Positions 30,001 to 33,000 of a DNA stretch of 64,000 bases are shown in pieces. Source of the stretch: a virus. Lineage: Duplodnaviria; Heunggongvirae; Uroviricota; Caudoviricetes. Position numbers: made by a program. The stretch lies in the IMG/VR virus record IMGVR_UViG_2718217789_000003, one strand, 5' to 3'. Every line of letters starts with the position of its first letter. The stretch's first letter is position 1.

Positions 30001-33000
30001 TTTCGATGACATTTTCTTTCCTCTGGTGACAAGCTATATGGCGAGGATTTTACATGGCTGTGCTTCGTACGTTACCGGGCAGAATCAAAACTCTGAACAC
30101 CCGGCGGGTGAATATTCTGAAGGGTGAACAGCGTCGTGTCAGTGGCAGTGCACGTGTTTCCCTCAAGCGTCATATCTGGCTCAGGGATGCCGGGCAGTGC
30201 TGTCTCTGTGGTCGTGTGGTTGACCTCTGTGACAGTGAACTCGATCACCGAATTGCACTTCAGTTCGGTGGTGGTAATGAGGAGACGAATCTCTGGACGC
30301 TCTGTACCGAATGCCATCGACAAAAGTCTGCTCGTGAAGCGGCGGGTGGTATGCCGGACCCGACGCTGCCGGAGGTGTCCGGAGGTCATGGCAGGGCAGA
30401 CGATATCATCGGACTGTGACCCGCCCCGGGGGGGGGGGGATCATCCGGCGAAAAAAACGATCGCCCTGGACACCGCGCCCCCTCTCACGCAGAGAAAAAA
30501 TTCCCGTTTCAGGGCAGTTAACATGTTAACTGGCTGCCCGGGCATTTTTGCGGTTTTTATCTTTATTATTCAGTTTGTTGTGCGGAAAAAATGTTAACAG
30601 GCTTTTTCAGCAAATGTTAACCAGGCAGCAGTTAACATTTGCGGCATGAGACGCCGGGAAAAATGGGCTGAACCATACCCGGCTGAGTGCGTTCTGGACC
30701 CGGGAGGAGGCTGTGCTGACAACGCAAAAACGAAAATTTGCGCTGGCGCTCATGTCCGGGAAAAACAAAACAGCGTCAGCCCTTGCCGCCGGTTATTCGG
30801 CGAAGACAGCCAGGGTTAAAGGCTCGCAGCTGGCAAAAGATCCGGAGGTGCTTGCGTTTATAGCCCGTAAACAGTGCGAGACGGTGGAGGTGGATGAGGT
30901 TCCTGTTTATCGGCAGAAAAAATCAGAGCCGGAGGATAAACCCCGTCGCCGTGAGGCGGCTGCAATACCACAGCCGGACGAAACAAATCCGGAGATGCCA
31001 CCGCCCGTGGTGATATCTCCTGGTATTGAGTATATGGAGGACGGTCTTCCCGATCCGGTGAAAGCGATGGGGCGTCTTCTGGTGGAGAACATTAATACCG
31101 ACCCCAGGCTGGCGCTGGATGCGGCTTATAAGCTGGCGCAGTTCACGCACCACAAAAAAGGGGATGCCGGTAAAAAATCGGCAAAAGGTGACGCGGCGAA
31201 AAAAGCGGCTAACCGTTTTGCGGTGCCACCACCACCCCGCCTGGTGGTGAATAATGATAATGAGGGCAACGGATGATACCTGTGTGGAGCACGGCCTGCC
31301 CGGACTGGGCAGAGCGCCTGAAAAAGGGGCTGTCGATTATTCCGGCTCCGATTTATCCGGAGCAGGCCGCACATGCCCTGGCGATTTTTAAACAACTGCG
31401 GATTGTGGATGCACCGGGCAGCCCGACGTTCGGGGAGTCCTGCGCACAGTGGGTGTTTGACCTGGTGGCGGCCCTGTTTGGCTCCTACGATGCGCAGACC
31501 GGTGTACGCCATATCAAGGAAGTTTTTATCCTTATCCCCAAGAAAAACAGCAAGTCCACGCTGGCTGCCGGGATCATGATGACGGCGCTGTTACTGAACT
31601 GGCGGCAGGCGGCGGGCTACACCATTCTGGCCCCGACCGTGGAGGTGGCGGCTAACGCCTTCAACCCTGCCAGGGATATGGTACGACGGGACGATGATCT
31701 GGATGACCTCTGTCAGGTGCAGACACATATCCGGACCATCACCCACAGGGTGACGGACACCACCCTGAAGGTGGTGGCTGCCGATCCGAATACGGTATCC
31801 GGTATCAAGTCCGTGGGGACGCTGATTGATGAACTGTGGTTATTTGGCAAGCAGTACAAAGCGGAGGACATGTTACGTGAAGCCATAGGCGGCCTTGCCT
31901 CCCGCCCGGAAGGGTTTGTGGTGTATACGACCACCCAGTCGAATGAGCCGCCAGCCGGGGTGTTCAGACAGAAACTGCAGTACGCCCGGGATGTCCGTGA
32001 CGGCAAAATTCATGATCCGCACTTTCTGCCGGTGATTTTTGAGCATCCTCCTGAAATGGTGGAAAGCGGGGCTCACCTGCTGATGGAAAACCTCGCCATG
32101 GTTAACCCGAATCTCGGTTATTCGGTGGATGAGGCTTTTCTGTACCGGGAGTACCGTAAAGCCCGGGAGGCTGGTGAGGAAGCATTTCGTGGCTTCATGT
32201 CAAAACATGCCAATGTGGAAATTGGTCTTGCCCTGCGTTCTGACCGCTGGGCGGGTGCGGATTTCTGGGAGCAGCAGGGCAGGCGCGTCAGCCTGGACGA
32301 TATCCTGCAGCGCGCTGATGTGGTGACGGTGGGGATTGACGGCGGGGGCCTGGATGATCTGCTGGGAATGTACGTGACTGGCCGTGACAGGGAAACCCGC
32401 GAATGGCTGGGCTGGGGCCATGCCTGGGCGCATGAAACCGCGGTGGTCCGACGGAAGAGCGAGGCGTCCCGGTTTCAGGATCTTGTTGCCTGTGGAGATA
32501 TGACCATTGTCCGGCGTGTCGGGGATGACACGGCGGAAGTGGCGGAATATGTGCGTCGCATTCATGAGGCTGAGTTACTGGACCATATCGGTATTGACCC
32601 GTCAGGGGTGGGGCAGATTCTGGATTCACTGGCGGAAGCCGGGATCCCCGACGGAATTGTGGTGGGGATAAGCCAGGGCTGGAAACTGGGCGGGGCCATT
32701 AAAACCACCGAGCGCAAACTGGCTGAAGGGGTGCTGGTGCATGGTGACCAGCCCCTGATGGCCTGGTGTGTCGGCAATGCCCGGGTGGAGCCTAAAGGTA
32801 ACGCCATTCTTATCACCAAACAGGCCAGTGGACGGGGAAAAATTGACCCGCTGATGGCGCTGTTCAATGCGGTCTCCCTGATGTCCCTTAACCCGGAACC
32901 GAAAAAGAAAGAATATGCGGTTTTTTTCATATAACCCTGTTCACACTGTAACCATCATGAACCGCTGCGGCGGTTTTTTTATTTTCAGGAGGCTGATGTG

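Follow-up and report, generated by a model that had tools for sequence, protein, structure and literature searches.

In phage HK97, the small terminase (TerS) binds an A-tract site 15-29 bp downstream of the cut and stalls the packaging motor at the cohesive-end site (cos), and the HNH protein gp74 stimulates cos cleavage (PMC11331095, PMC9410871). The minimal TerS site is 15 bp long, begins 15 bp past the cut and includes the A tract, and the division of labour between the HNH protein and the large terminase (TerL) is treated as open (PMC11331095). Cos-adjacent HNH nickases of Gram-positive phages have a measured nicking specificity of CG/GT; that of HK97 gp74 is undetermined (PMC3592412). 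Cohesive ends have also been described for Xp10, a 9-nt 3′ overhang of sequence GGACAGTCT (PMC2248197), and for SfI and SfV, whose cos end is TGCCCGCCCC (PMC3636060). Here we analyse a 64-kb stretch of viral DNA (IMG/VR record IMGVR_UViG_2718217789_000003; the whole stretch is called the window), which is a long-tailed Shiga toxin (Stx) prophage of the genus Pankowvirus, and describe a predicted cos site in the gap between its HNH endonuclease gene and terS.

We propose that positions 30428-30645 of the window are the cos of a Pankowvirus-type Stx prophage that would package by an HK97-like, HNH-dependent route with 3′ overhangs; judging from sequence comparison, we put the probability of this reading at roughly 0.75. 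That a 3′-overhang cos site of some extent lies in the HNH-terS gap is a prediction in which we have high confidence. The site is an ordinary member of the HK97/HNH type that has gone unannotated, and a cos annotation was absent from every record inspected for this region. A sequence-only reading of the window had suggested an HNH-assisted, HK97-type cos region at this place, and this holds up on gene content, on the cohesive-ended relatives of the TerL and on a layout common to seven other phages.

Phages with known DNA ends share the layout of the HNH-terS gap

To place the predicted end, we compared the window with HK97, HK022, SfV, D3, phiE125, Bcep176 and Xp10, all with linear records that stop at their physical termini or next to them, except SfV; its record is offset by 7 nt, and the published overhang was placed within it. 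These distant phages were used because no close relative with mapped ends was found. The Bcep176 record has the 10 nt CGCACGTTCC at both of its ends, and the Xp10 record ends in its own overhang. In 7 of 7 phages a G-rich run is followed, after 31-36 nt, by a 3′ overhang of 9-10 nt; this criterion (G run, about 32 nt, overhang) was derived here from the mapped phages and is not a published definition.

The individual sites can be read directly from the DNA. HK97 (G-rich run GGGGGGGGG) and HK022 (G-rich run GGGCGGGGGGGGG) both have a 32-nt spacer, the overhang CGCCGCCAAA and the step AC^CG at its left edge, where the caret marks the nick. The spacer is also 32 nt in phiE125, between the run GGGCGGGGAGGGGGG and the overhang CGCCCGCTTC, and it is 33 nt in Bcep176, between GGGGAGGGGG and the overhang given above; both have AC^CG. 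In SfV, 31 nt separate GGGGAGGGGCGGG from the published overhang and the step is AC^TG, and in Xp10, 36 nt separate GGGTGGGGG from the overhang and the step is CC^GG. D3 has the run GGGGTGGGGCGGG, a 31-nt spacer and, for an assumed overhang of 9 nt (GCGCCCCCA), the step CC^GC. The window fits this series with the run GGGGGGGGGGGG, a 34-nt spacer and a predicted overhang, CGCGCCCCCT, at AC^CG; written out, it reads G12, 34 nt, GGACAC^CGCGCCCCCT^CTCA. AC^CG at the left edge of the overhang was counted in five of the seven mapped phages as well as in the window, and ATCA(A/T) immediately 3′ of the G run is common to the window, HK97, HK022 and SfV.

Alignment points to the same bases. With MAFFT, the overhangs of Bcep176 and Xp10 fall on (C)GCGCCCCCT of the window, and the D3 record ends with 17 nt (GGACACCGCGCCCCCA) of which 16 are identical to window positions 30467-30483. 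From the layout of the mapped phages, this alignment and the D3 match, we therefore predict that the cohesive end is the 10-nt 3′ overhang CGCGCCCCCT at 30474-30483. The nicks would probably fall between 30473 and 30474 on the bottom strand, at AC^CG, and between 30483 and 30484 on the top strand. Read on the bottom strand, AC^CG becomes CG/GT, so the putative bottom-strand nick has the same sequence as the specificity of the cos-adjacent HNH nickases. The predicted position could be off by a few bases, and the cut would lie between the G tract and a set of GTTAAC boxes further downstream, at neither feature.

The 34-nt spacer ATCATCCGGCGAAAAAAACGATCGCCCTGGACAC (30440-30473) is conserved in the Escherichia coli and Salmonella relatives and includes an A7 run (30451-30457) that is polymorphic among prophage copies, from A6 to A8; as a result, the spacing between the G run and the predicted cut differs by 1-2 nt among copies. 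Polymorphism in the core peaks at 30477, 30482 and 30488 (CGC[G/C/T/A]CCCC[C/G]T, then CTCA[C/T]), which are positions inside or just after the predicted end. We also considered contig ends as termini. Four IMG/VR contigs start or end at 30483-30490, flanking the polymorphic positions 30482 and 30488 in multi-copy prophages, and this cluster probably consists of assembly-graph breaks, not termini.

The G run is conserved and unstable in length

Directly after the HNH gene, which stops at TGA (30417-30419), the sequence-only reading had noted a C tract and then twelve G, and this is what the DNA contains: CCCGCCCC at 30420-30427, followed by G12 at 30428-30439, the sole run of at least eight G in the window. 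The two elements behave differently among relatives. Scanning IMG/VR for a conserved 18-mer gave about 105 homologous loci, all of them with the order G run, 19-20 nt spacer, GATCGCYCYGGACACCGC, NCCCC(C/G)TCTCA, A tract and GT(T/A)AACATGTTAAC. A G run of at least seven is kept in all of these loci, including lineages with an unrelated, AT-rich left flank. Because it persists despite unrelated left flanks, the G run is the left edge of the conserved cos unit, at the position that cosQ occupies in lambda. In contrast, the C-rich tail is variable: related loci that keep the G run have CCCGACC, CCAGACCC, CCCGAGC or AT-rich sequence in its place, and the tail is probably not part of the functional site. 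We favour the view that the G run is itself a functional subsite of cos.

In another reading, the cut is made at the junction of the C-rich tail and the G run (30417-30439) and not at 30474-30483. This would be in keeping with the resemblance of TGACCCGCCCC (30417-30427) to the mapped end of SfI and SfV (PMC3636060). However, in SfV itself 31 nt separate the G-rich run from the overhang downstream of it, many relatives that retain the G run and the core have swapped the tail for unrelated sequence, and the ends of D3, Bcep176 and Xp10 all align to 30474-30483. We consider a cut at the junction very improbable.

The length of the G run is G7 in 43 of the related loci, G8 in 28, G9 in 20, G10 in six, G11 in three, and G12 and G13 in one each. 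The sequence-only reading had raised two explanations for the G12 tract, slippage and a sequencing artefact, and these fare differently. Near-clonal O157 strains have as their sole difference G11 versus G12, which could be a homopolymer miscall in sequencing or assembly. Against this, a run of at least seven G is found in every related locus across many independent projects, G12 is present in Sanger-sequenced phage 2851 and G10 in phi330, and HK97 and HK022 have G9 at the equivalent place. There is thus hardly any chance that the run is an artefact; it is a genuine, conserved tract of unstable length, as expected of a slippage-prone sequence.

Rearrangements at the run were seen in some relatives. 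In PPompW prophages (L004, LC567828, 1546-3004), the IS110-family insertion sequence (IS) ISEc20 lies directly against the cos G run, of which GGGGG is left, and neither the lysis genes nor the HNH gene is present. A further contig, L048, has the same deletion junction as L004 (...CCTTTC|GGGGGATCATCC, equivalent to 30435-30439 of the window) without an IS. In the Pseudomonas phage vB_Pae_CF53a (MK510966 ends, L126 and L125; TerL 59% identical), G8 and C8 runs make up a perfect inverted repeat of 12 nt around a terminator-like hairpin, and a T7 tract follows just before terS.

A conserved core and five GTTAAC boxes lie downstream of the predicted cut

Immediately past the predicted overhang is a conserved core, CTCACGCAGAGAAAAAATTCCCGTTTCAGG (30484-30513), with an A tract at 30495-30500. 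It would form the first-packaged end and is a candidate for the primary terminase recognition site. In the window, Bcep176, Xp10 and the Salmonella relatives, the overhang is followed by C(T/C)CA, 7 nt and an A tract, and CTCACGCAGAGAAAAAATTCC in the window is at the position corresponding to the HK97 TerS site.

Past the core, five GTTAAC elements had been listed within 120 bp (30517-30636), two of them as a near-palindrome. The positions proved correct, with GTTAAC at 30517, 30525, 30593, 30616 and 30631, so that 5 of the 18 sites in the whole window, for which about 10.6 would be expected, fall within 120 bp. The symmetry proved stronger than described: an inverted-repeat search showed boxes 1 and 2 to be parts of one palindrome, CAGTTAACATGTTAACTG (30515-30532), which is perfect over 18 bp. 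A T-rich spacer, visible in the sequence at 30545-30580, separates this palindrome from boxes 3-5. Box 3 (30591-30598, plus strand) is the 8-mer ATGTTAAC, found by word and repeat searches, and boxes 4 and 5 (30610-30642) are arranged as GCAAATGTTAAC-N9-GTTAACATTTGC, a perfect 12-nt inverted repeat with arms at 30610-30621 and 30631-30642. When commonly oriented, the five boxes have the consensus AAATGTTAACTG(G/C)C. On both strands of the 64 kb there are six copies of ATGTTAAC, five of them in this region; 1.7 were expected, and 0 of 100 shuffles reached six. The clustering of GTTAAC and of ATGTTAAC is far beyond chance. By analogy, the position and symmetry of the boxes are plausibly those of a cosB-like array serving an oligomeric small terminase, and we put the idea that they bind TerS a little below an even chance.

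Only the E. coli lineage has the array. The relatives from Salmonella, Burkholderia and Pseudomonas have a single GTTAA...TTAAC element, which overlaps the terS start (MLT.../MALT...); elements of the form GTAAACATGTTAAC and GTTAATGGC(G/T)TTAAC carry this start in the related locus L003, Bcep176 and CF53a. The ATG at 30523, inside the palindrome, corresponds to the terS start codon of these relatives, and the E. coli lineage has about 190 bp, with boxes 3-5, between this old start and the current GTG at 30713. Beginning at the same ATG is a 24-codon open reading frame (ORF), MLTGCPGIFAVFIFIIQFVVRKKC (30523-30597), with a remnant of the ribosome-binding site (RBS) of the Salmonella-type terS upstream. 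Other lineages have different short repeats at the same place, namely two copies of GGCCATTTCC in Xp10 and two of AAAAGTTACAC in the related locus L015.

These lineage differences bear on how far the site extends. It may be that cos is the core only, from the G run to about 30513, and that one lineage gained the 190 bp with boxes 3-5 by insertion where terS used to start; this DNA would then have no packaging role, or another role, for example as a translated 24-codon mini-ORF or a terS leader element. The Salmonella-type loci, which run from the core straight into terS with the ATG inside GTAAACATGTTAAC and have the first ~60 TerS residues well conserved, fit this arrangement, as do the ancestral RBS-like AGGG and the ATG at 30523 that are retained in the window and the unrelated repeats, such as those of L015, in other lineages. 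Because the first ~60 residues of TerS are conserved in both E. coli and Salmonella types, boxes 3-5 are an addition and not a requirement. However, neutrality is very unlikely for five copies of the 8-mer in 122 bp that form a perfect palindrome and an inverted repeat, and the boxes are found 34-155 bp past the predicted cut, on the side that would be packaged first, like the HK97 TerS site. Nor is the core-only arrangement favoured by the RNA fold, which is unremarkable (z = -1.48) and has no Rfam hit, or by the resemblance of the insert to the 5′ end of terS, which is not significant. We regard it as a distinctly lesser possibility, although one to be kept in view, and retain a cos that includes the boxes.

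Several other explanations for the region were examined and set aside. For an RNA element in the terS leader, the fold was that given above and there was no Rfam hit at E <= 1. Promoter and terminator searches gave nothing above shuffle expectation, and the box 4/5 hairpin has no T tail. A cruciform pairing the G run with the C-rich overhang had a DNA fold z of -0.99. As for the boxes being degenerate copies of the 5′ end of terS, the top local alignment falls elsewhere and is not significant, since 28 of 1000 shuffles score as well. No match to the integration host factor (IHF) consensus WATCAANNNNTTR within one mismatch was found in 30420-30712.

The HNH and terminase proteins resemble those of cohesive-ended phages

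The HNH gene (30054-30419, plus strand; PF01844, E 7e-07) would encode the accessory nuclease of the packaging machine. Its product shares 35-37% identity with the HNH proteins encoded next to cos in SfV, D3 and phiE125 (35% for D3) and 70% with that of Salmonella FSL SP-016. An HNH gene directly upstream is also found in the cos phages HK97, D3, phiE125, Bcep176 and SfV. The small terminase gene, terS (30713-31276, plus strand), has an RBS, GGGAGGAGG (30702-30710, plus strand), 2 nt before its GTG start and encodes a Terminase_2 protein (PF03592, E 4.5e-08, residues 2-57). This TerS is 48% identical overall to that of SP-016, with the first ~60 residues best conserved, and 35% identical to that of Bcep176; an exact-protein lookup with it returned chromosomal contigs only. 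The large terminase gene, terL (31273-32934, plus strand), encodes ATPase and nuclease domains (PF03354 and PF20441), and its nearest relatives outside E. coli and Salmonella include the TerL proteins of Bcep176 (58% identity) and Xp10 (48%), both of which are cohesive-ended phages.

The TerS family raises the question of headful packaging, in which the region would be a pac site or have no packaging role. The window TerS belongs to Terminase_2, which we take to be the TerS family of the pac phages SPP1 and SF6. This family is also present in cos phages such as Bcep176, so PF03592 is not diagnostic of headful packaging. In addition, the studied members of this TerL clade have defined cohesive ends, the HNH gene is directly upstream as in the five cos phages named above, and homology of the intergenic DNA to mapped cos sites extends to the terminal bases. 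Headful packaging is therefore extremely improbable.

Some observations do count against the proposed HK97-like cos. Two of the mapped phages, Xp10 and SfV, lack AC^CG at the nick, and the D3 overhang, presumably 9 nt, would shift the nick step by 1 nt. The window TerS (PF03592) is of a different family from the D3 TerS, and the HK97 gp1 family is, we believe, also different from PF03592; because the TerS families differ, the analogy to the HK97 TerS site is only positional. The Salmonella relatives have a similar TerS N-terminal region without boxes 3-5, and sequences of the E. coli lineage vary too little here to show whether the boxes are under constraint. Finally, mapped virion ends were not found in the literature on phage 2851, BP-4795, VT1-Sakai and Pankowvirus, none of the phage records in the collection breaks at this site, and literature searches with the predicted-end sequence strings returned nothing relevant.

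The predicted cos region is widespread in E. coli

A segment of 501 bp around the predicted cos region is 100% identical in E. coli O157:H7 strain 9000 and related isolates, 99.2% identical in phage 2851 and 92-98% identical in BP-4795, 1717, YYZ-2008 and many Stx1a, Stx2a and Stx2c Pankowvirus phages. The long-tailed Stx1, Stx2a and Stx2c phages of O157:H7 carry this region; among 5426 complete E. coli genomes it is present in 1282, and a single genome can have as many as 8 copies.

The genes around the site run in the order HNH, 293-bp gap, terS, terL, protease-capsid fusion, portal. Pfam matches near the terminase (PF05065, PF04586 and PF04860) correspond to an HK97-fold capsid, an S78 prohead protease and a portal. 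The prohead protease is fused to the HK97-fold capsid protein, and the gene order is atypical, as the portal gene lies 3′ of the fusion gene, contrary to the HK97 order. The portal (35147-37726) has 859 amino acids, with about four tandem repeats of ~54 amino acids (PVPRDGRDYDPEVLQKAVNDAVANIPQPADGKSLTPDDVRPMLEQMVKEAVSHI) in its C-terminal half. On the other side, just upstream of the HNH gene, is a minus-strand DUF3950 (YlcI/YnfO family) gene (29785-30012), whose position is kept in related prophages.

A proposed mechanism and division of labour

The features described above can be combined into a model, in which the exact nicks, the pairing of proteins with subsites and any role of the boxes are predictions. 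Late in infection, TerS would bind downstream of the cut, at the CTCA-N7-A-tract core (30484-30513) as a candidate target and probably also at the five ATGTTAAC boxes (30517-30638), and recruit TerL. TerL and the HNH protein would then nick the two strands 10 nt apart, on the bottom strand at 30473/30474 and on the top strand at 30483/30484, to leave the 3′ cohesive end CGCGCCCCCT. Packaging would proceed rightward, with terS entering first, and stop at the next cos. The G run, 34 nt upstream of the cut, would act as a conserved subsite on the last-packaged end and most likely position the HNH/terminase complex for the cut that ends packaging, and its length would drift through slippage.

Comparison across phages suggests a further subdivision. 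The HNH protein keeps 35-37% identity to those of D3, phiE125 and SfV, while D3 has a TerL of only 21% identity, an unrelated TerS and a different sequence past the cut; conservation of the upstream half of the site thus follows the HNH protein, and that of the downstream half follows the small terminase. We tentatively raise the idea, which we think less likely than not, that the upstream half (G run, about 32 nt, AC^CG) could be the HNH protein's own recognition and nicking module. This half appears to be common to HNH-dependent cos phages, whatever the terminase family, and is kept together with the HNH protein from HK97 and D3 to the Stx phage. The HNH protein would then make the bottom-strand CG/GT nick and TerL the top-strand nick. 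If this were true, the hypermutable length of the G run (G7-G13) could tune the packaging efficiency of Stx and defective prophages.

New here are the base-level prediction of a cohesive end, the recognition of the G run as an old conserved subsite and the proposed split into an HNH half and a small-terminase half. These have practical implications. The layout common to these phages turns the division of labour between HNH protein and TerL into a concrete, testable proposal, and a base-level prediction eases the mapping of virion ends, the orientation of genomes and work with cos plasmids and transduction. In addition, a shared site helps to explain which defective prophages could be packaged by the terminase of another.

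Comparison with known packaging systems

The lambda cos (cosQ-cosN-cosB) resembles the window in having an upstream element on the termination side, a nicking site and a downstream repeat array for the small terminase. It differs in its unrelated Nu1/gpA terminase, its 12-nt 5′ overhang and its lack of an HNH protein, and the window lacks the IHF consensus. The window proteins (TerS of PF03592, TerL of PF03354 and PF20441) do not belong to the Nu1/gpA family, and the likeness to lambda is an analogy of layout only.

D3 resembles the window at the site itself: 16 of the last 17 nt of its record are the same as in the window, with a G-rich run 30-31 nt upstream, and the HNH proteins are 35% identical. 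However, it departs from the window in its TerL (21% identity), in its unrelated TerS and in the sequence past the cut. Bcep176 and Xp10, the closest TerL relatives with defined ends, can be aligned with the window at the G run, at the overhang and at the CTCA/CCCA-N7-A-tract; Bcep176 also has a TerS homologous to that of the window, and in both phages the region of the terS start contains GTTAA...TTAAC. They have one such element where the window has five boxes, and Xp10 has a 9-nt overhang without AC^CG.

HK97 and HK022, which are served by gp74 (HNH), gp1 (TerS) and gp2 (TerL), are also close in organization. HK97 differs in the sequence of its overhang, in having no GTTAAC box array and in its head-gene order, as the protease-capsid fusion precedes the portal in the window. 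In HK97 and HK022, as in the window, cos lies between the HNH gene and terS, and the terminase-binding side is downstream and contains an A/T tract (PMC11331095, PMC9410871). Both sites consist of G9 followed by ATCA, a 32-nt spacer, AC^CG and a 10-nt 3′ overhang starting with CGC, the same layout that we predict for the cos of this Stx prophage.

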